Source: a bacterium (GTDB lineage Bacteria > Patescibacteriota > Microgenomatia > JAMCZE01). Taken from it: a stretch of 64,000 bases of DNA. The translations under genes and the position numbers were made by a program. Positions 1 to 62,593 of this stretch are shown here, piece by piece; position 1 is the stretch's first letter; every line of letters begins with the position of its first letter. Below the pieces are notes generated by a model that saw only the letters and a list, made by a program, of their open reading frames with translations, ran no database searches and was not told the DNA's origin. The stretch covers positions 71,484-135,483 of the forward strand of contig JAKBJL010000002.1 of the NCBI GenBank assembly GCA_021836035.1, in the 5' to 3' direction.

Positions 1-662
1 GTTTTTTACCTAAGAGAAAAACTTGGGAATATTTATCTTCACTGGATGTTTTTGGTTACCTTTTAGCGCCACATCATTATGGTACCTGTGATCAGTCACT
101 TCAGGAAAGCATGGCCGCTGGCGTAGTACCTGTCGTTCTGGCGAACCCCATGGAAAGTTATATGGTAAAAAACGGAATTACCGGTATTGTGGTTAAAAAT
201 CAAACTGAATACGTTAGGGCTTTGCATGACTTGTATCGCAACCACAAACTAAGGAAGGTGCTATCTAAAAACGCTAGGCAATACGCTCAGAATTTCTCTC
301 TGGAGAAGATGATCGCAGAGTGGGATAAGGTATTTAAAGAAGCTTTAAGACTGCCAAAAACCCAAAAACGATGGAAAATCAATAGAAAAAACAAATTAGC
401 ACCAAAAGATATTTTTTTGGAATCCCTTGGGAGTTACGGTAAGGTTTTCGCCTCCTACTGCAACTCCAAGACTGACGAGGAAAAAGAGAGAGCTCTCAAA
501 AAAATAATAAAATTGGGGCAATTACCCAGATGGCAATCAGAGACGAAAAGTACGGTGCATAATTTCAATTCTTTTTTGCCTGGAGACAATTACCTAGCTT
601 TCTGGAGCAAAATGATGAGGAAGGCTCAAACCAATTATCAAGCCCAGAATAATAATGTATAA
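1..662 (+). CDS. Glycosyltransferase family 4 (GT-B, group 1), C-terminal part; 5' end outside window
   Basis: The frame is open from position 3 with no stop, so the Met at 111 is internal. The translation ...HHYGTCDQSLQESMAAGVVPVVLANP... matches the conserved C-terminal E-x7-E / 'EAMAaGxPVV' region of GT4 enzymes. Confidence 0.7.
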   Translation, partial: FLPKRKTWEYLSSLDVFGYLLAPHHYGTCDQSLQESMAAGVVPVVLANPMESYMVKNGITGIVVKNQTEYVRALHDLYRNHKLRKVLSKNARQYAQNFSLEKMIAEWDKVFKEALRLPKTQKRWKINRKNKLAPKDIFLESLGSYGKVFASYCNSKTDEEKERALKKIIKLGQLPRWQSETKSTVHNFNSFLPGDNYLAFWSKMMRKAQTNYQAQNNNV

Positions 663-1536
663 CAAGAATTTAGTTAGCGTCGGCATTCCCGCTTTTAATC
701 GTGCCGATAAAATAGAAAGAACAATAGATTCTATCCTTGCCCAGTCTTACAAATATCTTGAGTTAATTATTTCCGATGACGCATCCACGGACTGCACGTG
801 GCAAATCTGCAATGAATATGCCCGAAAAGATAAAAGGGTAAGGTGTTTTAGGCAAAAAAGTAACCTCGGGCTTAACGAAAATTTCAGTTTTCTATTAAGG
901 CAAGGGCGAGGAGAATATTTTTTGTGGATAAACGATGACGATTATTGTCATCCGGATTTTTTGTTGAAGTTAAAGAACGCTTTGGATAAACATCGCAGTT
1001 ACGGTATTGCTATGAGTTCTTTAAAGCAAATATTTGACGACGGCCAAGTGAAAAATGAGATAATTTATAAAGGTAAGAATAACGTTACAAACTATAGTCC
1101 AGGGCAGATTTTTAACGCAGCTATTTTTTATAATCCGCGAATTCACCTTTTTACGCTTGGCCTTTGGCGCCGAAAAGTTCTAGATCAACTTTTTATTCGA
1201 CCACTTCCGGTTACTACTGGAGTTGATAAAATCCTAGTTTGCGAGGCATCTTTCATGACGCGTTTTTATTCTGTCCCAGAAATTCTTTTCTATAAAACGC
1301 TTTATAGGGTTAATATGTTTGAGCGCCCATCCTATGGAGATTACCGAAGATTATATTTGAAGGACAGGGTCAAAATAAACTATACCATTACGCTGATTTT
1401 GTGGCTATTGACATCTCCAAATATTAGCATTCAACAAAAGATATTCTCCTTACCACCAAAGTTATTTTTAATTTTATGGTCAATGAAGTTTGAGCTCCTT
1501 AAGGAGATATTAATTAATTTTAGGAATATTATCTAA
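655..1536 (+). CDS. Glycosyltransferase family 2 (GT-A fold)
   Basis: N-terminal ...SVGIPAFNRADKIERTIDSILAQSY...LIISDDASTDCT... plus a DDD acidic motif (WINDDDY) is typical of GT2. A 4-nt ATGT/TAA-type overlap with the upstream GT4 suggests translational coupling. Confidence 0.75.
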   Translation: MYNKNLVSVGIPAFNRADKIERTIDSILAQSYKYLELIISDDASTDCTWQICNEYARKDKRVRCFRQKSNLGLNENFSFLLRQGRGEYFLWINDDDYCHPDFLLKLKNALDKHRSYGIAMSSLKQIFDDGQVKNEIIYKGKNNVTNYSPGQIFNAAIFYNPRIHLFTLGLWRRKVLDQLFIRPLPVTTGVDKILVCEASFMTRFYSVPEILFYKTLYRVNMFERPSYGDYRRLYLKDRVKINYTITLILWLLTSPNISIQQKIFSLPPKLFLILWSMKFELLKEILINFRNII

Positions 1537-2792
1537 ACCCTATTAATATCCCAATCAAGCTTGGGACGAATTATACCAGGCCAACCAGTATGAACATAAC
1601 GGTGAGCGGTCTTTGGATCATCATTGTCAACAATTTCAAAAGAGAGGGCCTTCGGACATTCGACATTACAACCGCTTACTGGAAAGTAATAATTAATTAT
1701 TGGAGTTATAGAATAAAACCCTGGCGCTAAGAAATTTCCTGGAATCTTGCAAACCGAATTGTAAACACCCGGTATTCTTTGCTTACCTCCGTAAACGGAG
1801 TGTTGGAAATCAAACGATGATAGAAGATGAATTCCTTCTTGAGTTCGAAGATAAAAGCCGGCTGTTGGTCGATAATCACCACGCATAACCCAGTATTGAA
1901 TTTCAATCGAGAATGGATCAGTAATGTTTATCTTACCTGAGACTTGGCCGGATTTATTAAGAATCCTGACTGACTTAAGACGGGCATAGTTATCTCCTGG
2001 AGCTGAATTTTTAGATTTCCATTCTATCTTCGCTTGACTTGATAGTCCCCGTTCCAGATACGTTTCAATTACAAAGTCAGGATTACCAATTGTTACAACT
2101 TTTCCGCCATCCAGTAACATTACGCTATTACAAAGACGTTGAATCGTGGCTACACTATGTGAAACAACCAAAACTGTTCTGCCATCTTTTGCGACCTGCT
2201 CCATTTTTTCCAGGCTTTTTTTCTGAAAAACAACATCACCAGTGGCCAAGACTTCGTCGACAACAAGAATTTCTGAATCAAGATTTGCAGCTACAGCAAA
2301 AGCCAGGCGGGTATACATTCCAGAAGAATAGTATTTAACTGGCGTATCTAAAAAGTTTTCAATTTCAGAAAAGCCCACAATTTCATCAAACTTTCTAGCA
2401 ATAGTTTTTCGGTCCATCCCTAATATTGCCCCATTAAGAAAAACATTCTCTCTTCCAGTTAATTCCGGATGAAAACCGGTGCCAATCTCTAAAAGACTGG
2501 TTAGTCGGCCGGAAATTTCTGCCCGTCCACTAGTCGGGGCTGTGATACGACTTAAAATTTTAAGCAAGGTACTTTTACCCGCTCCGTTTCGGCCAATTAT
2601 CCCCAATATCTCTCCCTGCTTTACCTCAAAAGAAATATCTTTTAGTGCCCAAAACTCATGTTCCTGCAAAACCGGAGCCGACGAATTGGATACGGCTTCC
2701 ATGATGGAATCACGTAATGTATCCTTACGGCGCTTCCCCCCGATAGAATATTTTTTAGAGATCTTATTAACTTTAATAATGGCTTCAGACAT
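1533..2792 (-). CDS. wzt: ABC transporter ATP-binding protein, Wzt/TagH-type polysaccharide exporter with C-terminal extension
   Basis: Walker A GRNGAGKST, ABC signature YSSGM, Walker B ILVVDE and H-loop VVSHS are all present. About 170 beta-rich residues follow the nucleotide-binding domain, as in Wzt proteins with a C-terminal glycan-binding domain. It lies immediately downstream of the ABC-2 permease gene with 2-nt spacing. Confidence 0.85.
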   Translation of the reverse strand: MSEAIIKVNKISKKYSIGGKRRKDTLRDSIMEAVSNSSAPVLQEHEFWALKDISFEVKQGEILGIIGRNGAGKSTLLKILSRITAPTSGRAEISGRLTSLLEIGTGFHPELTGRENVFLNGAILGMDRKTIARKFDEIVGFSEIENFLDTPVKYYSSGMYTRLAFAVAANLDSEILVVDEVLATGDVVFQKKSLEKMEQVAKDGRTVLVVSHSVATIQRLCNSVMLLDGGKVVTIGNPDFVIETYLERGLSSQAKIEWKSKNSAPGDNYARLKSVRILNKSGQVSGKINITDPFSIEIQYWVMRGDYRPTAGFYLRTQEGIHLLSSFDFQHSVYGGKQRIPGVYNSVCKIPGNFLAPGFYSITPIINYYFPVSGCNVECPKALSFEIVDNDDPKTAHRYVHTGWPGIIRPKLDWDINRV

Positions 2793-2794
2793 AT

Positions 2795-3613
2795 TTAAAC
2801 ATAATCAGCAAAGTTGTCTTCAGATCGGGAAAAATAAAATAGTCCAAAGGTAAAGACGATTAAAGTGATTAATAGTGAAATTAACACTAGGCCAAAATCA
2901 ATGTTATTGCTGCCCGCAACTAATGTCCTAAACGTCTCAAAAATACCGGTCAGAGGATTGGCAATCAGAAACCACTTGCGGTAATCGTAAATTATACTTA
3001 GCGGGTAAATTACGGGAGTAACGAAGATCCCAATCTGAACGAAAAAAGGCACAAGAAAACGAATATCACGATAACGGACATTCAGAGTGGCTAAAAATAG
3101 ACCGAGACCCAAAGTATTTAGCGATAGCATAAAGAGAAGCAGCGGAAGGAATAGAATTAACAATGGGCTGGGAATAATTCTATAGTAAATAAACATTAAT
3201 ATTAAAGGTATAAGGGAAACGAAAAAATCGACAACACTGGTCAGTACCGCAGATAACGGGATGAATAATCTCGGAAAATAGATTTTTTTAATAACCGGGC
3301 CCATGAGAACAACACTATTACTCGCCAAAGTTAATCCGCCTGAAAAGAAATTCCATAGGATTAGGCTGGAAAAAGAAAAAAGAGGATAAGGGAGATCTCC
3401 TGACGGAATTTTAGCCAGTTTTCCAAAAAAGATACTAAAAACTGCCGTCGTGACTACCGGTTGAAATAGAACCCATGCAATTCCCAAAAATGTCTGTCGA
3501 TATCGGACTTTTATGTCCCGCCAAACAAATACAAAAAGAAGTTCCCGTGACCGCCAGAGGTCATGAAGATTAATATCCCAAGGGCTTCGTTTTGGTCTGA
3601 TAACTGTGGTCAT
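2795..3613 (-). CDS. wzm: ABC-2 type transporter permease (Wzm/TagG family)
   Basis: The N-terminal amphipathic segment ...LWRSRELLFVFVWRDIKVRYRQTFLGIAWVLFQP... is followed by about 6 hydrophobic helices. The 272-aa size and its pairing with wzt are classic for an O-antigen or teichoic-acid ABC exporter. Confidence 0.8.
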   Translation of the reverse strand: MTTVIRPKRSPWDINLHDLWRSRELLFVFVWRDIKVRYRQTFLGIAWVLFQPVVTTAVFSIFFGKLAKIPSGDLPYPLFSFSSLILWNFFSGGLTLASNSVVLMGPVIKKIYFPRLFIPLSAVLTSVVDFFVSLIPLILMFIYYRIIPSPLLILFLPLLLFMLSLNTLGLGLFLATLNVRYRDIRFLVPFFVQIGIFVTPVIYPLSIIYDYRKWFLIANPLTGIFETFRTLVAGSNNIDFGLVLISLLITLIVFTFGLFYFSRSEDNFADYV

Positions 3614-3849
3614 ATCGGTTAACTTTCTCGTATTAAGTCTAATATTCTCGTGGCTCTAATTTTCCAGGCATATTTCTGATTGATTTCTTTATTAGTAATA
3701 AAACTTAGCATTGCCTAATTGCTGACTATGATATGCCAAGACTTTCGTGATCCGCAACAACCACTTTATCTAAAATTTGCCAATTACCACCTATATTTTA
3801 AACTATTTACCCCCGGATGCCCTTTGCCAGTGCTATCATAAAAAATTCT
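3614..3849 (-). promoter_or_regulatory. AT-rich intergenic region upstream of wzm-wzt; probable promoter/terminator region
   Basis: This is the only non-coding stretch longer than 100 bp in the window, and it lies between the GT4 stop (3850) and the wzm start (3613). No convincing -35/-10 pair or hairpin could be assigned by eye. Confidence 0.25.
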
Positions 3850-5001
3850 TCAATCATACATAAAAAGCCTCAAAAATTTTCCAACACCCTTCAGCAAATC
3901 ATAACTTTTAACTTGTCTGCGCTCGATTTGAGACAGTTTGGTAGATGTTGCGGGCGAGTTAATAAGTTGAATTATTTTCTGAGCAAAGACGGAGGGATCA
4001 CTTGATTTAACAAGACTGCTGCGTTCCATTCCCGATAGTAGATAACGCGGTCCAACAGTATCTGTTGCCACAATAGGAACTCCTATAGCCATTGCTTCCA
4101 AAACCACCCGGGGAAATTCTTCTTCTTTTGAGGGCATAAAAAAAATATCTGCTATGGAAAAATATTTAGATATCTCTCGATTGCTAATTGGGCCAAGCAT
4201 TATAATTTCTTTATTTAAATGTTTTTTGCTCACTTCGGACTTTAAACTTGAGTATAAAGGCCCCCCACCTATGACAATAATAACCACATTTTTGATTCTT
4301 GACATTAACTTTTCGGCTATAGGTATAATCTTGTCGGCACCTTTTCGAGGTGACAACCAATGTACAAATAGCACTATCTTCTTATTCCGAACTCTGAGTT
4401 GTGCTTTTAGTTTATTTTTCTCTAAAGTAGAAAGTCTAGGAAATCTCCTCAAGTTAATCCAGAGCGGAAATATTTTAACTTTAATCTGATTGATATGATA
4501 TGTCGTTATAAAATACTCTTTCATGCCGGGGTTACTTGTGACCAGGAAGGAAACCAAATCCAAATTCAGACGAAAAGCGATTTCTTCCCATATTCTATGT
4601 TTGTGGTGTGAGTAAAACTGGGAGAACCAGAAAAATGATCTACCACCGAAAATTCTGACAATTATTGAGGCTATAATTGAAGAATAAAGAGAATAATGAA
4701 TATAAAAATTCTGATAACCTTTGAACTTTAGAATACTAAAAATGAACATTCTTTCTATAAGATTAAAAGGGGGGATACCAAAATGTGCAAGGTATGCATG
4801 CCCGAAAGGAGGCAGAGCAGAAGAAGGATTTTCCAAATAAATATAGAGATCAGACTTGCTAGACACATTTTCCAACAATTCATATATGTGGAAATAATGG
4901 CTACTAGAGTCAGGATTATATTCTGAAATAACATAACAAATTTTGGATTTCATAATTTTCTTAAAGCGTATAGGGAATATTCTCTGAAGGATATTTTGCA
5001 A
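3850..5001 (-). CDS. Glycosyltransferase family 4
   Basis: The N-terminal KICYVISEYNPDSSSHYFHIYEL and the C-terminal ...FMPSKEEEFPRVVLEAMAIGVPIVATDTVGP... E-x7-E motif are both GT4 hallmarks. Confidence 0.8.
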   Translation of the reverse strand: MQNILQRIFPIRFKKIMKSKICYVISEYNPDSSSHYFHIYELLENVSSKSDLYIYLENPSSALPPFGHAYLAHFGIPPFNLIERMFIFSILKFKGYQNFYIHYSLYSSIIASIIVRIFGGRSFFWFSQFYSHHKHRIWEEIAFRLNLDLVSFLVTSNPGMKEYFITTYHINQIKVKIFPLWINLRRFPRLSTLEKNKLKAQLRVRNKKIVLFVHWLSPRKGADKIIPIAEKLMSRIKNVVIIVIGGGPLYSSLKSEVSKKHLNKEIIMLGPISNREISKYFSIADIFFMPSKEEEFPRVVLEAMAIGVPIVATDTVGPRYLLSGMERSSLVKSSDPSVFAQKIIQLINSPATSTKLSQIERRQVKSYDLLKGVGKFLRLFMYD

Positions 5002-5203
5002 TCTTTCCGAAGAAGATACTGAATATCTCGGCAGTTACCAATGATTGAAATAATACCCAAGTAACCCCCAACAGGGTTTGTTTATATTTAGTTTTAATAT
5101 CCCGCAAGGCAAAAATATAAAATAGTTCTCGATATCGCCAAAGTTCGGACAAATCAATATTTAGTAACGAGGATTGGGGTTTAATAATAAATTCCCTGGT
5201 CAT
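4961..5203 (-). pseudogene. Truncated wzm-like ABC-2 permease remnant (N-terminal 80 codons only)
   Basis: The product MTREFIIKPQSSLLNIDLSELWRYRELFYIFALRDIKTKYKQTLLGVTWVLFQSLVTAEIFSIFFGKIAKYPSENIPYTL aligns over its full length with residues 1-80 of Wzm at 2795..3613 (about 50-60% identity by eye). It stops before any transmembrane helix, and its 3' end is overlapped by the GT4 start at 5001. Confidence 0.6.
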
Positions 5204-5251
5204 TAATTAAGATAAATTATAGCTTAAATATTTTTATATCCAAAATATATA

Positions 5252-5286
5252 TTTACATAAGTATCTTCCCCTGATATTATCATTTC
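5252..5286 (+). promoter_or_regulatory. Sigma70-like promoter for the epimerase gene, probably giving a leaderless transcript
   Basis: -35 TTTACA (5252-5257), an exact 17-nt spacer, an extended -10 TGaTATTAT (TG at 5272-5273, -10 at 5275-5280), and the ATG at 5287. There is no Shine-Dalgarno between the -10 and the ATG, so the predicted transcription start falls at or next to the start codon. Confidence 0.4.
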
Positions 5287-6210
5287 ATGAAAATTCTTAT
5301 CACCGGAGGCGCCGGATTTCAAGGCAGCCATCTTCTGGAGCACCTACTTCCCGGGAACCACCATATTACGATCTTAAATACCTATTCGGAAATCGCGGCC
5401 AGGAATATTAGTCTTTTATGTAAGGATATTAATTGTGTCTGGGGAAGTATTACTGATCCAGAGATAGTAGAAAAAACGATTAGAGGTCAGGACGTCATCG
5501 TTCATATGGCCGCAAGAATACATGTGGGAGAATCCATAAATAATCCCAGTGCCTTCATTGAGACTAACGTTAAGGGGACCCTTAATATTCTAGAGGCAAT
5601 GAGAAATGCCAATAGTAAAGCGCCAAGTTTAATTTATTGGAGTACCTGCGAAGTTTATGGAGCCCCGTTACAAGGCAAATTATCCGAGTGTTCCGAACTG
5701 AGGCCCCAAAGTCCCTACGCCGCCTCAAAAGCGGCTGCTGATCGCCTTTGCTATGCATACTATAAAACATATGGCTTAAATATTACGATCGTTCGACCAT
5801 TTAATATCTTCGGTGAACGACAAAAAATTGGGGTTGGTGGCGCGGTAATACCTACGTTCGTCGAACAAGCTATGAATAATCAACCGTTAACAATTTCCGG
5901 AAGCGGTAAGCAAACCAGAGATTATTTAAACGTCAAAGATGTCATACGCGCTTTTGATATTATTTTGCAAAACAAAAACTTATCCGGCCAGACCATTAAT
6001 TTTGCTACCGGGATAAACACCTCTATTTTAGAAATAGCAAGATACATTGCTAAAAAGTTTAATACCAAGATAATTCATACTAGTCCCAGACCGGGTGAGG
6101 TAATTGCCTTTCCTGCAGACTGCCATAAAGCAAAATCTTTGGGATTTCGACCCAGTATTCCAATTTGGGAAGGTATTGATAACTATATCAATTGGAGATT
6201 GCAGAAATAA
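5287..6210 (+). CDS. NAD-dependent epimerase/dehydratase (extended SDR; UDP-sugar 4-epimerase / NDP-sugar dehydratase-like)
   Basis: Rossmann motif ILITGGAGFQGSHL is present near the N-terminus. The catalytic Y-x3-K YAASK sits at the expected spacing after the S/T residue (WSTCEVYG). The 307-aa length fits the family. Confidence 0.85.
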   Translation: MKILITGGAGFQGSHLLEHLLPGNHHITILNTYSEIAARNISLLCKDINCVWGSITDPEIVEKTIRGQDVIVHMAARIHVGESINNPSAFIETNVKGTLNILEAMRNANSKAPSLIYWSTCEVYGAPLQGKLSECSELRPQSPYAASKAAADRLCYAYYKTYGLNITIVRPFNIFGERQKIGVGGAVIPTFVEQAMNNQPLTISGSGKQTRDYLNVKDVIRAFDIILQNKNLSGQTINFATGINTSILEIARYIAKKFNTKIIHTSPRPGEVIAFPADCHKAKSLGFRPSIPIWEGIDNYINWRLQK

Positions 6211-7396
6211 TTTTTTTACCTCTTTTTTTCCAGGTATATTCTCCTTTAACATCTATAAAAGCCCGACGTGAAATTTTACGGGCAAAATTCTGGTGCCCCA
6301 TAAGAAATACAATTTTATCTGCCAAATCCCGGGGATCATCGGGTTTGGCAAAAATAGCATTCTCTTTATCGTTCAGCACCTCTCTAACTGATGGTAAATT
6401 CGTGGCCAGAATAGGATTACCGCTAGCCATATATTCAAACATTTTTAAAGGGGCCATAGTATACGCATAGTGTTTGTTCCAGGGGAAAGGCATGGCGCAT
6501 ATATCGAAAGCACGCATATATAAATATAGAGTTTTAGGTGGGACATGGCCCAGGAAAAGAGCTTTGGCTTCCGGAATCTCTTCCTCCTCTAGCATTTTTT
6601 GATAGTTAATAATATTTTCCTGGGGCCCACCAACACAGACCAAGAACAAACCGGGATATTTTGGAATCAATAACCCCATCGCTTTAATCAGTTCGGGGAT
6701 TCCTTTTTCCATGCCCGCAGTTACAAAACGACCACCATAACCTACAATAAATTTATCCGTTGGTAAGGATAGTTTTTTCCTGATCCGTGGTTTGGTCGTT
6801 GTAAAATCAAAATCTTCCATGTTAATTCCGTTGGGTAATGTAATAATTTTTTCATTGGGGAATCCCTGCCGCCGATAATAATCGGCAATATTATGATTGG
6901 AGGTTATTAATAAATCTACTCTGTTTATCCCTAATTTCTCAGTCAAATCTTCATACCTGTTTTGTGGTGGGATATGTACTTCGTAAATTACCATGGGCTC
7001 ATAGAATAAACGCGCTATATTTAAAAGGATCAAGGCCTCCTTGCATTCTGTAAAAAGATGAATAATCCGTCTGTTTTTTGACCAGAGATAATAAAGTAGC
7101 GCTATACTGAATGACCAGCTCATGAAAAGATATCTTAAATGAAGGATAATTAGTTCTAATAGTGGTATGCGGGGAAGTTCCAAAGCAAATAATTTTTTAA
7201 TCGGATAAAAGCCTTTTTTAATTTGGTAGTAATCCCAGAAATTAGCTTTTTTCAGTGCAGACACCTGTTTGCGATCAGGAATAACCAATTCTACTTTCTG
7301 GTTATTATCTACATAGGATTTACACATTGAGGCGATAGCGAACGATACGCCCCGCTCCTCCGGCATTCTTATTTTGGTTATGAAAGATATTAGCAT
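6188..7396 (-). CDS. Glycosyltransferase family 4-like (GT-B)
   Basis: The C-terminal half ...GYGGRFVTAGMEKGIPELIKAM...FDICAMPF...MFEYMASGNPILATNLPSVREVL resembles the GT4 donor-binding domain. Its 3' end overlaps the epimerase convergently by 23 nt. Confidence 0.65.
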   Translation of the reverse strand: MLISFITKIRMPEERGVSFAIASMCKSYVDNNQKVELVIPDRKQVSALKKANFWDYYQIKKGFYPIKKLFALELPRIPLLELIILHLRYLFMSWSFSIALLYYLWSKNRRIIHLFTECKEALILLNIARLFYEPMVIYEVHIPPQNRYEDLTEKLGINRVDLLITSNHNIADYYRRQGFPNEKIITLPNGINMEDFDFTTTKPRIRKKLSLPTDKFIVGYGGRFVTAGMEKGIPELIKAMGLLIPKYPGLFLVCVGGPQENIINYQKMLEEEEIPEAKALFLGHVPPKTLYLYMRAFDICAMPFPWNKHYAYTMAPLKMFEYMASGNPILATNLPSVREVLNDKENAIFAKPDDPRDLADKIVFLMGHQNFARKISRRAFIDVKGEYTWKKRGKKIISAISN

Positions 7397-8190
7397 GATG
7401 CACTTATTAAACTACGTCCGCCTCTTAATGCTATCGCATTAAAATGAAAATTTTTAAAAATATCTCTGAATATTTCCAGTGATTTTCCCGTCAAATCTGG
7501 ATGATACTCACCTATATAATTTCGGGCGACCTTCATATCTTTTATTGTCAGAAACGCCCGATATTCTTCTCCCTCAATATCGAATTTAATTATATCCACA
7601 GTCTTTAATTTTAAATTCTTCAATATATCAGTTATTGTTTTACCCCTAACCCATATCGACCGCTGCCCCGCCTCCCTCTTCAAGAGCGATGACGACAAGT
7701 TATTATCCTGGTTTAGATAAAATTTATTATTACCGGATCTGTCGGTAATAGCCCAATTATATGCTTGAGCATTTGTTAACTGTTTTATATTCAACAATAG
7801 CAACTGATAATTTCCGGGGTTGGGTTCAAAACAAATTATTCTCGACTGGGTGAATTTCAGTTTGAAATAGATTACCGATATTCCGATATGCGAACCAAAA
7901 TCAAGAATAATAGGTTTAGAAGCTTTTATGTCATTACGGTAAATTTCTTTTAAAAACACGTCGTCAATAGCTACCAGGTCTGCATCATCTCTTATATAAA
8001 TAAAAAATTTGGTTCCCTTCCAGCACAGCTGCAACTTAACCGGGCTCGAGGTTAAATAGGGTAGTCTTCCCTTAAATAAGGACAGAAAAGACCTAAGGAT
8101 CAATTTGATTTTTGTGGATCTATCCGCACAAAGAAACAATAGTCTCTTGGTTCTATGTAAATTATCAGTAACGTTTTTCAGCAGTTGCAT
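7390..8190 (-). CDS. FkbM-family SAM-dependent methyltransferase
   Basis: ...IILDFGSHIGISVIYF...SRIICFEPNPGNYQLLLLNI...AITDRSGNNKFYL...VDIIKFDIEGEEYRAF... matches the Methyltransf_21/FkbM pattern (DxGAxxG...AFEP...N......KiDvEG.E). Confidence 0.65.
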   Translation of the reverse strand: MQLLKNVTDNLHRTKRLLFLCADRSTKIKLILRSFLSLFKGRLPYLTSSPVKLQLCWKGTKFFIYIRDDADLVAIDDVFLKEIYRNDIKASKPIILDFGSHIGISVIYFKLKFTQSRIICFEPNPGNYQLLLLNIKQLTNAQAYNWAITDRSGNNKFYLNQDNNLSSSLLKREAGQRSIWVRGKTITDILKNLKLKTVDIIKFDIEGEEYRAFLTIKDMKVARNYIGEYHPDLTGKSLEIFRDIFKNFHFNAIALRGGRSLISASC

Positions 8191-8219
8191 TCGTGTTCAA
8201 GAGATAAGATGAACCCTCA

Positions 8220-8864
8220 TTAAATTTTTTTTCCTACAAAAACGATGTCGTCGGCAAACAGATCCGGAAATGATTTTGCTAAAAAGTGGAATTTATCGAC
8301 TGTTAAAGCGTGTACCTCGACATCTGGAAATATGCTTTTAAAAACATTTCTTATAATACTTATTGAAAAAACGTTAAGATGTGTCGGATCGGAAATTGAA
8401 TTCGGAATTTGTCCTTTTAAAAATCTTACTCTTTCTAAAATATGAAAAGCATTCGGTACTGAACCTACGAATATGCCGCCGGGTTTTAGAATTCTAAATA
8501 CCTTCTTAATTACCTCCTTAGGGAAATAAAGATGTTCCAGAATTTCCCCTGCTACTATCACATCAAAGGAATTAGCAGTAAATGGCCAATTTCTGGAATT
8601 TAAATCAAATTGCCTAGTATTTATATATAGATTTTTTTTACAAATAGCTAGTAGTCTCTTATCAATATCTACTCCTAGGACGGTATTTCCTTTAGTAAAA
8701 TATTTCGTCATAGTACCATCACGACACCCAAGATCCAATACTCTTTTACCTCTGCCTATGATATCGGAAAACAATTTTCCGCGCTCTTTTTCAAAATAAG
8801 CAAAATATTCTCGGTGGTTATTCCGATGATGGTACTGATAAATATCGCTAATTACGGATTTCAT
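8220..8864 (-). CDS. Class I SAM-dependent methyltransferase
   Basis: Motif I VLDLGCRDGTMT, motif post-I VLGVDID and motif II/III FDVIVAGEILEHL...LKPGGIFV are all present. Confidence 0.7.
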   Translation of the reverse strand: MKSVISDIYQYHHRNNHREYFAYFEKERGKLFSDIIGRGKRVLDLGCRDGTMTKYFTKGNTVLGVDIDKRLLAICKKNLYINTRQFDLNSRNWPFTANSFDVIVAGEILEHLYFPKEVIKKVFRILKPGGIFVGSVPNAFHILERVRFLKGQIPNSISDPTHLNVFSISIIRNVFKSIFPDVEVHALTVDKFHFLAKSFPDLFADDIVFVGKKI

Positions 8865-8866
8865 GT

Positions 8867-9931
8867 TTATTGTAGGTTATCTACTATAGCGGCGACCAAT
8901 TTATTTTGTGAATAGCTTTCTTTCAGTTTTTTTTGACCTTCCATAACTAAATTCTTAATTTCATTTCGATTTCTCTCTAAACTTTTAATGGCGTTAAAGA
9001 TTTGTTTGATATTCCCCTGCTTACATACATAACCGCCGATTCTATTATTAACAACTTCTCCGGCGCAGCCGGTATCGGTCATGACCACCGGTAAACCGGC
9101 GGCAAGAGCCTCAATAGCACTTAAACCCCATCCTTCATAATTAGAAGTCAACAGGAAGATATCGGACTTCGCCAGGGTCTGTTTAACTTCCAGGCGGTTT
9201 TTCTGGCCAACCAAGAGAACCTTTCCTTCCAATCCTTTTTCGCTGATCAGTCCTTCCAGCTTTGGCCGTTCTTCTCCCTCGCCTACTACCACAAACTTCA
9301 TCTTTGGGTAAGTTTTGCACACTCGTTCCGCCACCCCTATTAATAATGGTATATTTTTCTGTTTAATTAGCCTGGCTACCGTTACAATTTGGTTAAAGCG
9401 CTTTACATGCGGTTTGGACCAAAAGTAGTCGAGGTCAACCGGCACGGGGGCTACGAAGGACTTGTGGCCGTATCCGAGCCTCTTGCTAACCACCCTAACC
9501 GAATCCGCAGAGAGCAAGGTAAGCCTTCCCAGCCAATAAAAGAGATAATTCTGCAGGCTTTCGCGGCGAAAATAAGGGGTCTTAAAATAATCGTTATGAA
9601 TTTGGATATTTAACTTAACCCCCCAGCGGAATTTAGCCAAAACCCCTACCAAAGCGCAGATAAAAGGATCTTGGGTAGAAATTATATCCAGACGGGGTAA
9701 AGCGGTTAATATTTTCAGAGAATCCCCAAGATAATGCCAGCGGCTTAGCGAGTTGGTGGGAATAATATGTAAATTCTCCGCATCGATTCGGGAAAATCCC
9801 GCCAGCTTTAGGGAAAAAACGATAAGGTACAACTCTTTAAAATAATTCGCGTATTCCCGGTGTCTTGCCAGCACGTCGGCGTTTTTACCGGTAAATAAGC
9901 TGGTATCGGTACTGATAAAAACTATCTTCAT
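8867..9931 (-). CDS. Glycosyltransferase family 4, compositionally chimeric
   Basis: EGWGLSAIEALAAGLPVVMTDTGCAGEVV is the E-x7-E motif. The last ~60 codons (8867..~9050) are K/N-rich and about 30-37% GC, while the rest of the gene is about 45-63% GC. Confidence 0.8.
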   Translation of the reverse strand: MKIVFISTDTSLFTGKNADVLARHREYANYFKELYLIVFSLKLAGFSRIDAENLHIIPTNSLSRWHYLGDSLKILTALPRLDIISTQDPFICALVGVLAKFRWGVKLNIQIHNDYFKTPYFRRESLQNYLFYWLGRLTLLSADSVRVVSKRLGYGHKSFVAPVPVDLDYFWSKPHVKRFNQIVTVARLIKQKNIPLLIGVAERVCKTYPKMKFVVVGEGEERPKLEGLISEKGLEGKVLLVGQKNRLEVKQTLAKSDIFLLTSNYEGWGLSAIEALAAGLPVVMTDTGCAGEVVNNRIGGYVCKQGNIKQIFNAIKSLERNRNEIKNLVMEGQKKLKESYSQNKLVAAIVDNLQ

Positions 9932-11751
9932 ATTATCCTCGCGTCTATTTTACCCTGATTATCATAGAATAAATCTATCTTTCGCAACCGGCTATCACCA
10001 CCGCATACCGTGTAGCGCTCCCGATATTGCCCGGGAAAGTAATATGCCCTTATTTTGTCGGAAATACCCAAATAGCGCCGCAGGGACAATTCCGAAATTC
10101 CCCTTTCGACTTTTAAGCAACTATCGGGGGAATAAATTGATTTAACTTTGCCATTGATATTTTTCCAGTTTTGTTCCTTTAGCCAGGCTTGGGTGGTTGA
10201 TGAATAAGTTATTGCGGCGCCGAAAGAATCCCAAGAAATTGCATCATCGTCCAAACCGTTGGACAGATAATTGAATCGGAAAACAGTATTCAGCGTATAG
10301 ACAAGAGACAGCAACCAAATGGCGGCAAACAAAGTAATAATTATGGCTTTAGATTTAAATAACAGTAATGAATCGACAAAGATAATCAGTAACGGCAGAG
10401 TAATAAAAGGCAGGTAATAAGTCCTGACCCCGTTAAGAAGAAATATTACTGCCGAACTGAGGATAAAAATAATTATCAGCAACATATTACCCCCCTGTTT
10501 GCGCGTTGTGCCCATAAGCAGAAATATAATCAGTAAAGAAAAAAGGATAACTCCGTATTGATCAGCTAAAATCAGCGATAAGCGGGTAAGATTGCCGGAC
10601 AAATTCAGGGAAGCCTGTGTGGCCCCCGGATGCGCCGGAGTCTTGAATATCCGGGAGAAAAAGATATCGGTGTATCCCGTTGCAAGATATGCGCCGATGT
10701 TATAAACAATTACCGGGGAAAAGACAGCCAGAGCCGGGACAAACACCCGCAGGCCGTTTTTAATCAGCTCGCGCCTCTTAACAAGAACCAACCCCGCGCT
10801 AATAACGGGAAGTATCACCAGAGCGCTTTCTTTAACCAGCATCGCTCCTCCGAAAAATATCCCGGTTAAAAGTAAATATCTGTTTTCCTTGCCGTTGAAA
10901 AAGCGGAGAAAAACATAGATCGTTATTGTTAAAAGAAAGGTTAAAAACATTTCCCGGTGAAAGATGCGGCTCATAAAAATATGGTAATTATTAACCGCCA
11001 GTAAAGCCGTAACCGCAAAGGCTATAGATTTTTTCTTAAGAATCTCTTCCGACAGAAGATAAGCGAGGGGCAGTAACATTATACCGACTAACGCCGGGCC
11101 AAAGCGAAACATCCAGTCGGATAAGGTAGAAAGCCCCCCGGGCGAAAGAATCTGCATCGTAAAGTGCTGGATATATAAAGCCAGCGGCGGATGGCCGGAA
11201 AAAGAGAGAACCAAAGCTTTGCGACCGGCAAATATTCCGTCCACCAGGTTATCAGCCTGGTAACCGAGGTCATACTCATCACCGTTCAAATCGGGGATAT
11301 TTAACGGCAAAAATATCAGCAACGCGGCGATAAATAATGGCGGAATCAGTAATTTCAGATCCGTCAAGGATACTTTCTCTATTTGATCTTTTTTTCCATA
11401 AAGATACAGGGCCACCAGCGTTGTCAGTATATACATAACCAGCAGTATGAATATGTCGCCGGTCAGATGGTAACCGAAGATAGCTTGCGCTGATCTTCCT
11501 TCATAGAGAACGTTTAAAAACCCCGCGGGATAAGTCAAAAGCAAACTTAACCCGAACGAGATCAGTATTCTTTCCATAAGATCCCGGGACTTCGGGAGCA
11601 AAATCAGACTAAGAGGGTAACCACTGAAGAAAAAAACGAAAAGGAAACCGCTCACCCATCTTAAATACACCAGCCGGCTGTCAAACGACAGCAGAAGCGA
11701 TAGCAGCCCGGAGACTAAACCTGCCAGGAGCAGCTTATTTCTTTTCATCAC
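9928..11751 (-). CDS. Polytopic membrane protein, putative GT-C fold glycosyltransferase (ArnT/PMT-like) with C-terminal extracytoplasmic domain
   Basis: The protein is 607 aa with more than 10 hydrophobic helices in the first ~450 aa. An acidic loop NGDEYDLGYQADN follows the first helices, and a soluble C-terminal domain of about 150 aa follows the membrane part. Confidence 0.45.
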   Translation of the reverse strand: MMKRNKLLLAGLVSGLLSLLLSFDSRLVYLRWVSGFLFVFFFSGYPLSLILLPKSRDLMERILISFGLSLLLTYPAGFLNVLYEGRSAQAIFGYHLTGDIFILLVMYILTTLVALYLYGKKDQIEKVSLTDLKLLIPPLFIAALLIFLPLNIPDLNGDEYDLGYQADNLVDGIFAGRKALVLSFSGHPPLALYIQHFTMQILSPGGLSTLSDWMFRFGPALVGIMLLPLAYLLSEEILKKKSIAFAVTALLAVNNYHIFMSRIFHREMFLTFLLTITIYVFLRFFNGKENRYLLLTGIFFGGAMLVKESALVILPVISAGLVLVKRRELIKNGLRVFVPALAVFSPVIVYNIGAYLATGYTDIFFSRIFKTPAHPGATQASLNLSGNLTRLSLILADQYGVILFSLLIIFLLMGTTRKQGGNMLLIIIFILSSAVIFLLNGVRTYYLPFITLPLLIIFVDSLLLFKSKAIIITLFAAIWLLSLVYTLNTVFRFNYLSNGLDDDAISWDSFGAAITYSSTTQAWLKEQNWKNINGKVKSIYSPDSCLKVERGISELSLRRYLGISDKIRAYYFPGQYRERYTVCGGDSRLRKIDLFYDNQGKIDARII

Positions 11752-12910
11752 TTAAATTTCTAAATTCCCGCAAAACCATTACGGCAATCCGACCCCAGTG
11801 ATATTTCGTCCGGGCCAGTTCCGCACCATTATCGCCCAGGGCAAGGCGGAGATTTTTATCCCTTGCCAACTTTTCGATCGCTTTGGCAAGGTCCTTGGGG
11901 TCGTTTGGCAAAACCAGCAGACCGGTTCGCCGGTCGGTTAAAAAATCCGTGATCCCTCCCACGGGCGTGCCGATTACCGGAAGCCCTACCGCCATTGCTT
12001 CGATAAAGGAAGAGCCGAAACCCTCGTGGCGGGACGGCCGGATAAAAACGGAGCTACGTGAAAGCAGGGCCGGGATGTCCTTATTACTTACTCTTCCTAA
12101 AAAAGTTACCCGGTCGGCAATCCGCAACGACCTTGCCATTTTCTGCAGCTGCTTAAAAAGCGGTCCCTCTCCGGCAATGGTTAATTTCCATTTTAGTCCC
12201 GCCGGAAGAAGGGCGCAGGCTTTAATTAAAATATCGATGCCGTTACGGGGAATAAGCGAGGAGGTAGTCACGATCTCCAGTAGCTTATCTTCACTATTTC
12301 TTACGGGACGAAATTTCTCGATATCTACCCCGTTGGGAATAATCACGATATTTCTTGCTCCCATCCTTTGGGTAATTTTAGCCGAATAACTGCTAACCGC
12401 CGCTACCGTGTCTGCTTTTCTAAAGGACCAGGCGATCAGGGGGGTAATTAAATCAGCAAGTTCCGCGCGCAATTTCATCGGTAGCCAACCCCGAAGAACC
12501 AGCTCTTCCCGGGCCAGCAGCGGGTTCTGGGAAGTTATATATAGCGGAATTCCGGTAAACTTTTTAACCAAAGCTCCGACCTGCGCCTGGGGGAACTCCT
12601 GTTTTGCCCAGACAAGGTCATACTTTTTTAGTTTCGCAAGAACTATGGATAGGGGGGCGGCAAAAAGGATAAACATGATACCGTAGAGATTGGGAATATG
12701 GGGGTAAATTACCCGGTAATAATTTATGTGGGAAAGGCCGGGAAATTCTTTTTTGATCGTGATCTCCGGCCCGGTAACCACCGTCACCGCTTCCAGGTCC
12801 GGAGCTACCCTTTTTAATACTTCCACAAAATGCATTTCCGCCCCACCCAATTTTTCGGGTGTGATATCAGCGGCGATAGCAAGAATCCTCATATAATATC
12901 CAACTACCAA
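11735..12910 (-). CDS. Glycosyltransferase family 4
   Basis: ...RHEGFGSSFIEAMAVGLPVIGTPVGGITDFL... is the E-x7-E motif, and the N-terminal ...GGAEMHF... matches the GT4 N-domain. The likely start is the Met at 12892 (MRILAIAAD...). Confidence 0.8.
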   Translation of the reverse strand: MVVGYYMRILAIAADITPEKLGGAEMHFVEVLKRVAPDLEAVTVVTGPEITIKKEFPGLSHINYYRVIYPHIPNLYGIMFILFAAPLSIVLAKLKKYDLVWAKQEFPQAQVGALVKKFTGIPLYITSQNPLLAREELVLRGWLPMKLRAELADLITPLIAWSFRKADTVAAVSSYSAKITQRMGARNIVIIPNGVDIEKFRPVRNSEDKLLEIVTTSSLIPRNGIDILIKACALLPAGLKWKLTIAGEGPLFKQLQKMARSLRIADRVTFLGRVSNKDIPALLSRSSVFIRPSRHEGFGSSFIEAMAVGLPVIGTPVGGITDFLTDRRTGLLVLPNDPKDLAKAIEKLARDKNLRLALGDNGAELARTKYHWGRIAVMVLREFRNLSDEKK

Positions 12911-12913
12911 TAA

Positions 12914-14281
12914 CTAATTTCTAATCAGGGTCAACGAGCCGTTCGGCAGATAAGTAACGATCTCATCATACGCCGATAATTTTTCGTCTGATGAAATTAC
13001 CCCGCCTTTAATTACCGAAATATTACGGTCGGAGTAGAAGGTTGTGTGCCAGCCTTCAAATTCCATATTCGGTTTTTTAAGTAACAGTAAAACCCTGTCG
13101 GAAATAGCACTGTTTTCCTTAATATACCGCCCGATAACAACCCCATCTTTAAAACGGTCCCCGTTAAGCAGCGTTGCCGTGTATTTAGAGCTTTGAATTA
13201 CCGACAGGGCAATAACCGCAACGGCAAAAAATGCTCCCGCCGGACGGCTTTTTAAAAGCATGCGGCTGATAAAAAACCCCGCGGTAACCGAGATGAACGG
13301 TAATAAATAATAAATTAAATAGTCATGGCGGTTAGCGGCTTCTTCAAAAAGCAGCGGGTGTAAAGACCCGAAAAGCAACAGCATTAAGGGGAATTGATAG
13401 GTTCTTTTGGCAAAAAACAGAAGCAGGCCGGCCAACGAGATCAAAACAAGCGGCTTAGTGAAATACAATAAAATATAGGTTGTTTCCAATTTTAAAAACG
13501 CGAGAAAATCCGGACGGCTGGAGCGGAGGGCGAAAGCGGAGTTAAATCCCCCGCCGGTAAAGGATCCGCTAAGAATAAAGGTTTGGGAAACATGCGCCAG
13601 AAATAACCCTAGCGGCACAATTATCAACCAGACTAACTTTTTCTCAAATTTACGATGAAGCAGGAAGTGGTAAACCAGAAGAGAAACCGGCGTATAGTAA
13701 CCCGGCCAACCGGAAAGGCAACCTAGAATTATTCCGATAATTAACCAGACAAAATTCCGCCTGCTGTTACCTTCGTTCCAGGCGAGATATCTCCAGAGCG
13801 AAAAGAGAAAGAAGAACAAAACCGGTATCTCGTGGACGGCCATTTTCCCGAAGTAAAGGTAAAGCGGCGTAATTATCCAGAAAACGGCAGCAAGAGCGGC
13901 AACGGCGGGGCTATAAAGCTTTTTAACTATTACATAGAGCAATAATACCGTCAAAACGGACAAGATGATGGGTACTAACCGGGTAGATATTTCCGTAATT
14001 CCGAAAAAATAATAGGAAAGAGTCAATAAGGTGATCAACAAACCCGGATGGTGGGTGTGATAGGAAAATTCCGAGGGCGTTACAATTCCGGAGTTTACTA
14101 CCTGCCCGAAACGGGTGACAACCACCCCATAGCGTAAAGTATTTCTGGCAATATTGCCGAAAAAGGCGTTATTGAAGTCGTGATGTCCCCAAAAGGGCTT
14201 GTCCGCCCTATAAAGTAAAGCTATAAAAGCTAAAATAAGGGTTAATAAGAGTATTAAATTATGACGACACAATATCCTCAT
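12914..14281 (-). CDS. Polytopic membrane protein, putative GT-C glycosyltransferase
   Basis: The protein is 455 aa and multi-helical. The first loop, ...YRADKPFWGHHDFNNAFFGNIARN..., carries D/H residues, and the overall architecture resembles ArnT/PMT-type transferases. Confidence 0.4.
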   Translation of the reverse strand: MRILCRHNLILLLTLILAFIALLYRADKPFWGHHDFNNAFFGNIARNTLRYGVVVTRFGQVVNSGIVTPSEFSYHTHHPGLLITLLTLSYYFFGITEISTRLVPIILSVLTVLLLYVIVKKLYSPAVAALAAVFWIITPLYLYFGKMAVHEIPVLFFFLFSLWRYLAWNEGNSRRNFVWLIIGIILGCLSGWPGYYTPVSLLVYHFLLHRKFEKKLVWLIIVPLGLFLAHVSQTFILSGSFTGGGFNSAFALRSSRPDFLAFLKLETTYILLYFTKPLVLISLAGLLLFFAKRTYQFPLMLLLFGSLHPLLFEEAANRHDYLIYYLLPFISVTAGFFISRMLLKSRPAGAFFAVAVIALSVIQSSKYTATLLNGDRFKDGVVIGRYIKENSAISDRVLLLLKKPNMEFEGWHTTFYSDRNISVIKGGVISSDEKLSAYDEIVTYLPNGSLTLIRN

Positions 14282-15398
14282 ATACTTTAAATATTTGCAT
14301 ACTGATATGCTTCCAGGTATAGTATTTTTCTACAAGTTTATAACCTTCCTCCCCCATTTCCCCGCCTATCGGCGATTCTAATATCTTTTCCATTTTAGCA
14401 GCTAAATCTTGGGGGTTACCGGGATCGGTTAAATATCCCGTTTTCCCGTCCTTAATCAACAGACCGACATCTCCGATATCGCTGGCAATTACGGGAAGCC
14501 GGCAGGCCATAGCATCGACAAGTGTCAAGGGAAATCCTTCCGCTGATAATGAAGGCAGAACAAAAGCGTGCGAAGACTTGTATTCCCGGATAAGATCTTC
14601 CCCGTAAAGAGCCGGTTTGATATCTACCTTCTTCTCCAGTTTGGTAGCTGCCACAAGGTCTTTTATCTTAGCTTTTTCCGGACCTTCACCTACCAGAGTT
14701 AAACGAAATCGGGGAAAACGGGAGGCAATATTTTGGGCCGCTTTAATAAGAACCGGGAGACCTTTAACCTCAACAAAACGACCTACCCAGAGAAAGCGAA
14801 AAGCCTTTTTATCCCGGTGCGCCGATAGACTTTTGAATTTTTGCAAATCCACCCCGTTGCCAATGATAAAGGTTTTGCGGGTAGCCACTTTACCGTTTAA
14901 GGATTTTCCCGCGACCGTAATCAAAGCATCATAACGATAAATGTTTACGATAAGATTGCTGAGTATGGCCGGAAGCCCGCTGCGGTTAATTAAACCCGCA
15001 CCCAAACCGCTGCTTCCTAAGCCGTGAAGCGTATAAACGGTCTTTTTGCGCTTCAGCAATCCCAGCAGGGGCAAAAATATTGTGGTCGAATAACTGTGGC
15101 TGTGATAAATATCATAACCGGCAAATAGCGTATAACGGAAAGCGTAAAGGATAAATAAAAGGCGTCCGAAAAACCGGGGAAAAATAAACCGGGGGCCGAG
15201 GCGAAGTACTTTCAGCCTGCCGTTTTCATAAACTTCCCTGCCGGGGTAAATCTTACCAGTTTTATCGGTAAGGTTCGGGACTACGATATCCACCAGGCAT
15301 CCATAATCTTTTACCAGACGCTGTGATACTTCCCAAATATGCGCTTGCCCCCCGCCCCACCAGGGCATCCAGGCGTCAGTCAACATGCAAATCTTCAT
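14259..15398 (-). CDS. Glycosyltransferase family 4
   Basis: The N-terminal MKICMLTDAWMPWWGGGQAHIWEV is a GT4 N-domain motif, and ...SAEGFPLTLVDAMACRLPVIASDIGD... is the E-x7-E motif. Confidence 0.8.
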   Translation of the reverse strand: MKICMLTDAWMPWWGGGQAHIWEVSQRLVKDYGCLVDIVVPNLTDKTGKIYPGREVYENGRLKVLRLGPRFIFPRFFGRLLFILYAFRYTLFAGYDIYHSHSYSTTIFLPLLGLLKRKKTVYTLHGLGSSGLGAGLINRSGLPAILSNLIVNIYRYDALITVAGKSLNGKVATRKTFIIGNGVDLQKFKSLSAHRDKKAFRFLWVGRFVEVKGLPVLIKAAQNIASRFPRFRLTLVGEGPEKAKIKDLVAATKLEKKVDIKPALYGEDLIREYKSSHAFVLPSLSAEGFPLTLVDAMACRLPVIASDIGDVGLLIKDGKTGYLTDPGNPQDLAAKMEKILESPIGGEMGEEGYKLVEKYYTWKHISMQIFKVYEDIVSS

Positions 15399-15425
15399 AA
15401 GCAGCTCAAAGCCAATAGCAAATAG

Positions 15426-16571: not shown

Positions 16572-16921
16572 TTTGGCTTGTTTGCTTTGTTGCCGTTTTC
16601 GAGGGCAATTTTCCGAACTAGCTCCGTAATCTGGTGAGAAAGGTTTTCCATGAGAACATAAGCCCGGAAAATTAAATAGAAAAGGACAATAATGGAAACA
16701 TAAATAACCAGATCCGCTCCCCGCCCGATACCGAAAAGCCGCGCCAACCGCGTTGTTTCTCCCGGAAAAAGAACACCGAAGATAGCCGAGACAAAAACTA
16801 CCGACCAGAAAATAAACTCCTTATATTTAATTTGCCCGCCCCGGAAGCGCAGAAATACCCGGCTTAAGGCAAACAAAAGAAAAAGCAGCAGAATGAGCTG
16901 AATTATGATGATACTGCTCAT
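16568..16921 (-). CDS. Small 3-4 TM membrane protein, DUF2304-like
   Basis: The protein is 117 aa with hydrophobic segments MSSIIIIQLILLLFLLFAL, IFWSVVFVSAIFGVLF and LVIYVSIIVLFYLIF. Its size, topology and position in an operon with a Dpm1-type GT2 match what I recall of the DUF2304 family. Confidence 0.4.
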   Translation of the reverse strand: MSSIIIIQLILLLFLLFALSRVFLRFRGGQIKYKEFIFWSVVFVSAIFGVLFPGETTRLARLFGIGRGADLVIYVSIIVLFYLIFRAYVLMENLSHQITELVRKIALENGNKANKPK

Positions 16922-17679: not shown

Positions 17680-17680
17680 A

Positions 17681-26725: not shown

Positions 26726-26726
26726 C

Positions 26727-37695: not shown

Positions 37696-37709
37696 AAGAT
37701 TTCCGCTGC

Positions 37710-62581: not shown

Positions 62582-62593
62582 TAGGCTATTCTA

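Follow-up and report, generated by a model that had tools for sequence, protein, structure and literature searches.

The window analysed here is a stretch of 64,000 nucleotides of contig JAKBJL010000002.1 (assembly GCA_021836035.1, positions 71,484 to 135,483) from a bacterium of the Patescibacteriota. It holds a single super-operon for glycosylation, whose genes overlap stop to start and lie almost entirely on the minus strand, with a core of about 47% guanine plus cytosine (GC). At the left end of the window, this core gives way to a block of lower GC, and the change occurs inside a glycosyltransferase gene of the GT4 family, just past the part that encodes its conserved EX7E motif. The elements that define this seam are listed below, from the core side to the block side. 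Positions are those of the window, and negative numbers lie to its left.

9928..11751, minus strand: GT-C (PMT-like) membrane glycosyltransferase, first gene of the 47% core (Pfam PMT_2/PMT; GC at third codon positions, GC3, 0.49)
8867..9931, minus strand: junction GT4 gene (GT-B), 354 amino acids (aa), in frame and full length (Pfam Glycos_transf_1, 132 bits, cut-off 26.4)
9059..9931, minus strand: GT4 codons 1-291, the "body", with the composition of the 47% core (GC3, synonymous codons, FYMINK residues)
9110..9136, minus strand: EX7E motif, E266-GWGLSAI-E274, from the translation; both Glu are invariant in an alignment of 24 sequences
9056..9079, minus strand: TDTGCAGE, codons 285-292, last strongly conserved stretch of the family in the alignment; similarity between members falls right after it
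8972..9164 (GC3 alone) or 8989-9068 (total GC), minus strand: likelihood support intervals of the composition break
8870..9058, minus strand: GT4 codons 292-354, the "tail" (in the protein, a strand followed by three C-terminal helices), similar in composition to the low-GC block (GC, GC3, GC2, synonymous codons, FYMINK residues)
1..9057: part of the low-GC block that lies inside the window, 37% GC; the whole block spans -2666..9053, 11.7 kb

In the alignment the two motif glutamates are numbered E265 and E273, as the query row lacks Met1. The PMT-like gene overlaps the GT4 start by 4 nt, and its orthologues lie directly upstream of GT4 in several loci from relatives (L004, L009, L010, L092, L093).

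Sliding-window and exact counts give 37.1% GC over positions 1-9000 and 46.9% over 9001-64000. An earlier note on this DNA had placed a GC step near 9060 from hand-counted samples of 60 nt, which were reproduced within 1-4 points. However, its right-hand samples (52-63%) overstate the background, the true mean being 46.9%, and the step amounts to about 10 points instead of 20-30. A single-step likelihood scan of the whole 64-kb window puts the change point at 9057, with a log-likelihood (lnL) gain of 156, just past the segments encoding EX7E and TDTGCAGE. The 2-lnL support interval for total GC is 8989-9068 (80 nt), and moving the step to the end of the GT4 gene (8866) makes the fit 8.9 lnL units worse. 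The GT4 tail has 30.4% GC, and none of the 191-nt windows in 9058-64000 is equally AT-rich. AT-rich gene ends are not a habit of this genome, since among the 39 genes on the right, the last 64 codons have a mean GC of 45.7% and in no gene less than 39.1%.

Codon usage draws the same line. GC3 ranges from 0.26 to 0.44 in the nine genes on the left and from 0.46 to 0.57 in the 39 genes on the right, without overlap; within the junction gene it falls from 0.51 over codons 1-291 to 0.28 over codons 292-354, where GC at second codon positions (GC2) is 0.22. When GC3 alone is scanned across six consecutive minus-strand genes, the change point falls after codon 290 of GT4 (window 9062), with support for codons 256-320. 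Synonymous-codon log-odds are conditioned on the amino acid and hence free of protein composition. Per codon, they range from +0.053 to +0.163 in the core genes and from -0.123 to -0.045 in the block genes, so that the two sets separate completely. The GT4 body scores +0.061, within the core range, and the tail -0.101; only 0.06% of 63-codon windows in the right-hand genes are as left-like as the tail. Taken together, GC3 and synonymous codons split the gene at codons 290-314. The switch had been claimed to fall within GT4 near its conserved motif, and both total GC and GC3 place it there, about 30 codons or less from the motif.

The GC-normalised dinucleotide signature separates the block from the core with delta* x1000 = 111, compared with a mean of 33 and a maximum of 42 for equal-sized core chunks set against the rest of the core. 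Thus GC, GC3, synonymous codons and dinucleotide signature all bear out the view that, in composition, the left part is alien to the remaining window. Amino acids with AT-rich codons (FYMINK) follow the same partition. Their fraction in the GT4 body is 0.283, the lowest of 24 orthologues (0.342 +/- 0.028), and their fraction in the tail is 0.429, the second highest (0.329 +/- 0.066). The description of GT4 as a chimera is therefore borne out at the level of composition, by every measure applied (GC, GC3, synonymous codons, FYMINK).

At the protein level the gene looks intact. It aligns end to end with 23 orthologues and, because its closest homologues are all full length with the tail included, the tail is the normal end of the orthologue family and not an unrelated piece. 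The chimeric protein is predicted to fold well: the AlphaFold2 model has a mean pLDDT (predicted local distance difference test) of 93.6 and a pTM (predicted template modelling score) of 0.87, and it displays alternating strand/helix units closed by three C-terminal helices. In the tail, the model has a strand at 299-302 and helices at 307-319, 321-338 and 341-352, with pLDDT values of 85-97. The closest solved relatives among sequence matches in the Protein Data Bank (PDB) are TarM and BshA. The exact GT4 protein is found on 7 contigs from three sources (NCBI, Logan, ENA), and the junction is 100% identical to the window both in Logan contig SRR13170411_29208 and in the MEGAHIT k141 contig. 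The window also corresponds to contig DAHXMT010000003.1 of the metagenome-assembled genome GCA_027371575.1, where positions equal those of the window plus 62740.

To delimit the block, 19.3 kb of flank were added on the left by walking through two further loci. Dynamic-programming segmentation of flank plus window yields a three-segment model with the best Bayesian information criterion: 42.4% GC over -19306..-2667, 37.2% over -2666..9053 and 46.9% over 9054..64000. A first recursive segmentation had placed its top split at 10574, which dynamic programming identified as an artefact of pooling the 42% and 37% zones. The block is hence not bounded inside the window, as the earlier note had it, but extends 2.7 kb further left, where the next zone has 42% GC, not 47%. 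Its left end is sharp and falls in the spacer that separates a radical-SAM/SPASM gene from an FkbM gene. Beyond it, the 42% zone continues for at least 16 kb (16.6 kb at 42.4%). On the other side, at least 65 kb of 47% DNA follow, GC staying at 44-50% in the 10 kb right of the window, which contain trmD. The block is the odd one out among these zones, as delta* x1000 is 111 between block and core and 89 between block and left zone, but only 51 between core and left zone.

Searches for traces of insertion were negative. Neither an integrase, nor a transposase, nor any other mobility gene is among the Pfam matches for the block or its left extension; there is no tRNA in the window and no Rfam family in the block; direct repeats across the two block boundaries are short and at chance level; and promoter-like and terminator-like sites in the block are also at chance level. 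The first block gene, a methyltransferase, starts 2 nt after the GT4 stop, so that the block continues the resident operon. Of the marks of a classical integrative island, the deviant composition is present, whereas mobility genes, insertion at a tRNA with direct repeats, and absence from the same site in relatives were not found.

The left zone, from about -2700 to -19300 (L091 4700-21314; 42.4% GC), encodes radical SAM/SPASM, CapK-like ligase, DUF362, UDP-glucose dehydrogenase, MBOAT and DUF2142 proteins. The best relatives of the CapK-like protein are 60-65% identical, and their labels, which include Bathyarchaeota and Chloroflexota, hint at an exchange between phyla; a genome-collection scan with this protein gave no match. 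In the same zone, at about -5393..-4129 (L002 3953-5217), an N-terminal GT4 half of 246 aa runs out of frame into a 190-aa fragment of a Wzt ATPase. This fragment is 58% identical to residues 62-245 of the window Wzt, has Lys replaced by Gln in its Walker A motif and is without a C-terminal domain. Judging from these features, it looks like a deletion scar, the remnant of an older GT4-Wzt (ABC-transporter) cassette.

The block genes identified in the earlier note (Wzm, Wzt, GT4s, GT2, epimerase/dehydratase, two methyltransferases) were all recovered with Pfam. In the order in which they follow the junction gene, they are:

8220..8864, minus strand: class I S-adenosylmethionine-dependent methyltransferase, 214 aa (Pfam Methyltransf_23/11; GC3 0.26)
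7390..8190, minus strand: FkbM-family methyltransferase, 266 aa (Pfam Methyltransf_21; NCBIfam fkbM_fam, 83.7 bits, cut-off 37.7)
6188..7396, minus strand: GT4, 402 aa (Pfam; syntenic orthologues in L004, L092 and L093)
5287..6210, plus strand, opposite to its neighbours: nucleoside diphosphate-sugar epimerase/dehydratase, 307 aa (Pfam Epimerase / GDP_Man_Dehyd)
4961-5203, minus strand: open reading frame (ORF) of 80 aa with no assigned function (gene calls in L002)
3850..4953, minus strand: GT4, 367 aa in the public-assembly call (Pfam; gene calls in L002)
2795..3613, minus strand: Wzm-type ABC-2 permease, 272 aa (Pfam ABC2_membrane, 63.8 bits)
1533..2792, minus strand: Wzt-type ATP-binding cassette (ABC) ATPase with a C-terminal glycan-binding domain, 419 aa (Pfam ABC_tran, 77 bits)
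655..1536, plus strand: GT2, 293 aa, converging on wzt (Pfam Glycos_transf_2, 114 bits)
1..662, plus strand: 3' part of a GT4-like gene of 454 aa that starts 702 nt left of the window (L002 8644-10008; Pfam Glycos_transf_1)

Two more FkbM-like genes lie just left of the window. ENA contig k141_956630 (L003, 172 kb) starts at window position 362, within the 454-aa GT4-like gene, through which other assemblies read; this start inside the block may reflect strain variation or a drop in coverage.

Pfam was run on 49 of the 50 window ORFs of at least 150 aa, the plus-strand ORF 11883..12389 being left out. No Wzy polymerase or Wzx flippase was matched in 1-9057, and no initiating phosphoglycosyl transferase of the WecA or WbaP type is among the matches of the whole set; such an enzyme may be encoded elsewhere. 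NCBIfam gives no equivalog-level name to the block proteins, with the FkbM domain as the sole exception. The epimerase scores 209 bits as dTDP-glucose 4,6-dehydratase, below the cut-off of 365. For Wzt, the nearest models, TagH and galactan Wzt, are both below cut-off, and its Wzt_C domain is marginal (31.7 bits, cut-off 30.4). From this gene content, the product of the module is probably an ABC-exported, methyl-capped cell-surface glycan.

The arrangement of these genes is shared with relatives. Upstream of the seam, the order PMT_2 - GT4 - PMT - GT4 is common to six relatives' loci (L004, L008, L009, L010, L092, L093), most of which also share the preceding stretch GT2 - DUF2304 - GT4 - GT4. 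Downstream, L004, L092 and L093 match the window: the methyltransferase and/or FkbM comes first, then the 402-aa GT4, then the reversed epimerase. The methyltransferase has orthologues after GT4 in L004 (47% identity) and L093 (51%), FkbM has one in the same place in L092 (41%), and the epimerase has orthologues that are 58-63% identical and keep place and orientation in all three. Wzm and Wzt are also syntenic in L004, and orthologues of Wzm with 46-55% identity are found in L004, L009 and L010. The best database relatives of the 402-aa GT4, from Patescibacteria, are only 50-53% identical. In other relatives, a split glycosyltransferase (169 + 144 aa) and different genes follow GT4. The block had been taken for an inserted island. 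This does not hold, because the gene order across the seam is the same in L004, L092 and L093, so that block genes are present at the same site. In the five relatives tested, which carry an orthologous GT4, GC is 38-44% on both sides and there is no step; of the genomes compared, only the present one changes composition within the shared gene order. The idea of horizontally exchanged cargo is thus retained for the foreign composition and for a glycan module of the Wzm/Wzt type, but not for a novel island.

We propose that a cassette was replaced by recombination, which left an in-frame chimeric GT4, rather than that a new island was inserted, and we give this reading a probability of roughly 65%. 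Since the same gene order runs across the seam in relatives, the replacement would be that of a homologous cassette within one operon. DNA of a lower-GC relative with the same gene order would have recombined into the distal end of the operon (allelic replacement). One crossover would have occurred in GT4, the last of the conserved core genes, within its final 100 codons and either at the EX7E...TDTGCAGE region or just past it; this region may have offered the last similarity usable for recombination. The other would lie 11.7 kb away, in the spacer between genes that is found 2.7 kb beyond the left edge of the window. Codons 1 to about 291, which encode the catalytic body, would then be resident, and the C-terminal strand and three helices (codons about 292-354) would have arrived with the cassette, the hybrid enzyme keeping its EX7E motif (E266...E274). 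With a gap of 2 nt and no promoter signal, the incoming genes would be read from the transcription of the resident operon. The distal end of this operon, with the methyltransferase, FkbM, three GT4s, GT2, the epimerase/dehydratase, Wzm and Wzt, would serve to make a methylated glycan and to export it through an ABC transporter. The scar of an older GT4-Wzt cassette in the left flank was counted in favor of this proposal, as were the loss of homology in the orthologue pair P0015/P0020 and the parallel of the Bordetella O-antigen locus (both below). That the 37% block is the incomer and the 47% core native is likely, not proven; this direction rests on the 65 kb and more of 47% DNA with trmD.

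Several results weigh against cassette replacement. The databases searched contain neither a donor nor a parental sequence: GT4 as a whole is at best 54-55% identical to a relative, the 402-aa GT4 of the block has no relative above 53%, and the genome-collection scan with the GT4 alignment went no higher than 51% identity, with relatives that mostly bear the labels of Patescibacteria groups. The 63-residue tail was also searched separately from the body; among 1.84 billion representatives it retrieved itself and matches of at most 41%. On either side of the seam, the proteins are equally close to those of L004 (45-63% identity), hence there is no phylogenetic asymmetry. A comparison of neighbours between tail and body moves the nearest neighbour from P0003 to P0009 with a rho of -0.37; none of the 24 members is lower, but some of them are negative too and the tail holds little signal. 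The tail is the fastest-evolving part in all orthologue pairs, which blurs tests at the protein level; protein trees cannot resolve the recombination question. Moreover, the left flank has 42% GC, not 47%. Finally, copies of 47% and 37% GC presumably share only short identical runs at the motif, so that classical homologous recombination at precisely that place is a proposal and not a demonstrated event. The suggestion that the conserved motif served as homology patch is likewise an inference. The break can be placed no more closely than to codons 256-320, an interval with which a position at the motif is compatible.

The seam may also be read in the opposite direction, with the 37-42% DNA on the left nearer to the native state and the 47% core array of at least 65 kb imported or atypical. 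All relatives with the locus have 38-44% GC, and the 16.6 kb left of the block stand at 42.4%, not at 47%. We nevertheless hold this reading to be unlikely, because the 47% stretch runs for at least 65 kb and includes the housekeeping gene trmD, and because the block differs in dinucleotides from both neighbours (111, 89), which are closer to each other (51).

Another explanation dispenses with transfer: the distal genes would be vertical and would have drifted to lower GC in place, under relaxed or different selection on variable surface-glycan genes. The conserved gene order across the seam, the equal divergence from relatives on both sides and the lack of a donor in the databases searched agree with it. 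However, the change is abrupt (80-nt support interval) and inside a gene, the left boundary is equally sharp and between genes, synonymous codons, dinucleotide signature and amino-acid make-up shift together, and none of the five relatives has a step at this place. Drift in place is therefore quite improbable.

An assembly error that fused the contigs of two related organisms at the conserved motif of GT4 deserves mention for metagenomic data with a seam at the most conserved stretch of a multi-copy gene family, and ENA contig k141_956630 does end within the block, at window 362. We consider it very improbable: the junction is identical in the Logan and MEGAHIT k141 contigs, and 7 contigs encode the chimeric protein without any difference; the gene keeps its reading frame, its length and its alignment to the family, and its product is modelled with confidence; and an assembler working at k=141, as the contig name suggests, could make such a join only over some 141 identical bases, more than DNA of 47% and 37% GC presumably offers here. 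Least of all do we credit a true boundary at the gene end (8866) with a tail that is AT-rich merely as a poorly constrained Lys/Asn-rich segment, since this tail, although rich in K and N and less conserved than any other part of the family's proteins, is block-like in its synonymous codons (0.06% tail probability), the GC3-only support (codons 256-320) excludes the gene end, and none of the 39 core genes has less than 39% GC in its C-terminal 64 codons.

If a cassette was replaced here, the question arises of whether the site is used more widely. A maximum chi-square test places the split in identity at query codons 290-308 in nearly all pairs of the 24 orthologues. Closely related pairs are of two kinds. 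In those whose body and tail diverge jointly, the two parts are 89% and 79% identical (P0004/P0005), 76% and 58% (P0009/P0017) or 75% and 51% (P0010/P0021). In others the tail is saturated, with 78% and 26% (P0007/P0011), 78% and 37% (P0015/P0020) or 73% and 28% (P0008/P0010). At the DNA level, P0015 (L099) and P0020 (L176) are 70-80% identical from upstream of the gene to nt ~780, then 52-65% at nt 780-870, and 35-47% through the tail and the next 490 nt. Their downstream genes differ: GT4 is followed by a split glycosyltransferase in L176, and in L099 by a methyltransferase that converges on it from the opposite strand. Over the tail and beyond, the control pair (P0009/P0017) remains 58-82% identical in DNA. 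P0015 and P0020 are an independent pair, and they lose homology at about the same codon as the window seam.

The site just after EX7E...TDTGCAGE (query codons ~290-300) could thus be a recurrent module joint, at which the last ~60 residues travel with the downstream cassette and not with the catalytic body. We put this forward tentatively, at somewhat less than even odds. The leads are the common split in identity, the two kinds of pairs and the loss of DNA homology in P0015/P0020; plain differences in rate between body and tail may account for them instead. A scan of metagenome contigs, in which the true orthologues numbered only five or six and sat on short contigs, allowed no broad test of a recurrent joint. 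If the joint is real, surface-glycan diversity in reduced genomes would arise from repeated cassette swaps at one intragenic site, and the C-terminal helices might serve to fit the enzyme to the partners encoded downstream. A recurrent breakpoint would also be a natural site that tolerates GT4 domain swapping, useful for glyco-engineering and for the typing of glycan loci in metagenomes. In the control pair (L098 1-213 and L008 9788-10000), DNA homology begins abruptly at the GT4 start codon, with 35-42% identity upstream and 58-87% inside; judged by this alignment, the 5' end of GT4 may also be a block boundary in some lineages.

Replacement of O-antigen or capsule cassettes by recombination in conserved genes, flanking or internal, is known from the galF-gnd region of E. 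coli, the K locus of Klebsiella and the pneumococcal cps locus. The wbm O-antigen locus of Bordetella has low GC and breakpoints predicted inside genes, without a mobile element (PMC3849452). As in these Bordetella, enteric and pneumococcal loci, the variable glycan genes described here are of lower GC than their surroundings, no mobile element accompanies them, and the breakpoints lie in or next to conserved genes, which stay in place. Unlike them, the host is an uncultured organism of the Patescibacteria type, and the cassette is the tail end of a GT-C/GT2/GT4 operon of 55-65 kb or more instead of standing free between housekeeping genes. Its proteins differ by about 50% from all known relatives.

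In Wzm/Wzt export, of which E. coli O8/O9a is an example, a terminal cap is recognised by the C-terminal domain of Wzt; the teichoic-acid exporter TagGH is related. The block resembles such systems by its adjacent ABC-2 permease and ATPase with Wzt_C beside several GT4 and GT2 genes, and by methyltransferases that, from their families, could add a terminal methyl cap. It departs from them by NCBIfam matches far below equivalog cut-offs, a marginal Wzt_C domain and the lack of an initiating phosphoglycosyl transferase among the window's Pfam matches. The envelope of this lineage is probably without an outer membrane, so that the product would not be a lipopolysaccharide O-antigen in the strict sense.

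Mosaic glycosyltransferase genes produced by intragenic recombination are known from Neisseria lgt and from the lipooligosaccharide (LOS) loci of Campylobacter. There as here, an in-frame hybrid of two homologous glycosyltransferase genes keeps the catalytic motif; in those cases, however, both parental alleles were sequenced, whereas the parents of the present gene are deduced from composition only. The matching passages of an article on gene exchange in Patescibacteria (PMC12455944) describe no such locus. The seam is a new, well-resolved example of a known process, most likely the swap of a surface-sugar cassette, in an under-studied lineage.

It is mainly through their surface glycans that these ultra-small and probably host-attached bacteria interact with hosts and phages. 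Under cassette replacement, their glycan operons would diversify by the same exchange as the O-antigen and capsule loci of pathogens, without a mobile element, and the junction gene would provide a base-level example of an in-frame chimeric glycosyltransferase. It also carries a warning for annotation, as island callers based on composition will cut this GT4 in two.

To the right of the seam, same-strand overlapping genes run from 9928 to the end of the window and on to about 73,800 in L094, that is over 55-65 kb or more. Sixteen membrane proteins of this core match GT-C-type Pfam families (PMT_2, YfhO, PTPS_related), and seven more large proteins have no Pfam family. The core also carries many GT2 and GT4 genes, a DUF2304 gene, methyltransferases and a Wzx-like flippase (45278-46729). 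Going by these matches, it is an unusually dense array of extracytoplasmic glycosyltransferases for a probably small genome. In two relatives, core GT4 genes are each called as two half-size ORFs, corresponding to the N- and C-domains, at the same two positions (L008 3485-4548 and 7529-8571; L176 884-1944 and 5004-6082); these are either genuinely split genes or shared frameshifts. In the window itself, an apparent operon gap of 417 nt (32471-32887) is filled by an ORF for a small hydrophobic membrane protein of 148 aa (32467-32913, minus strand), where GC dips to 32-39% at about 32375-32600.

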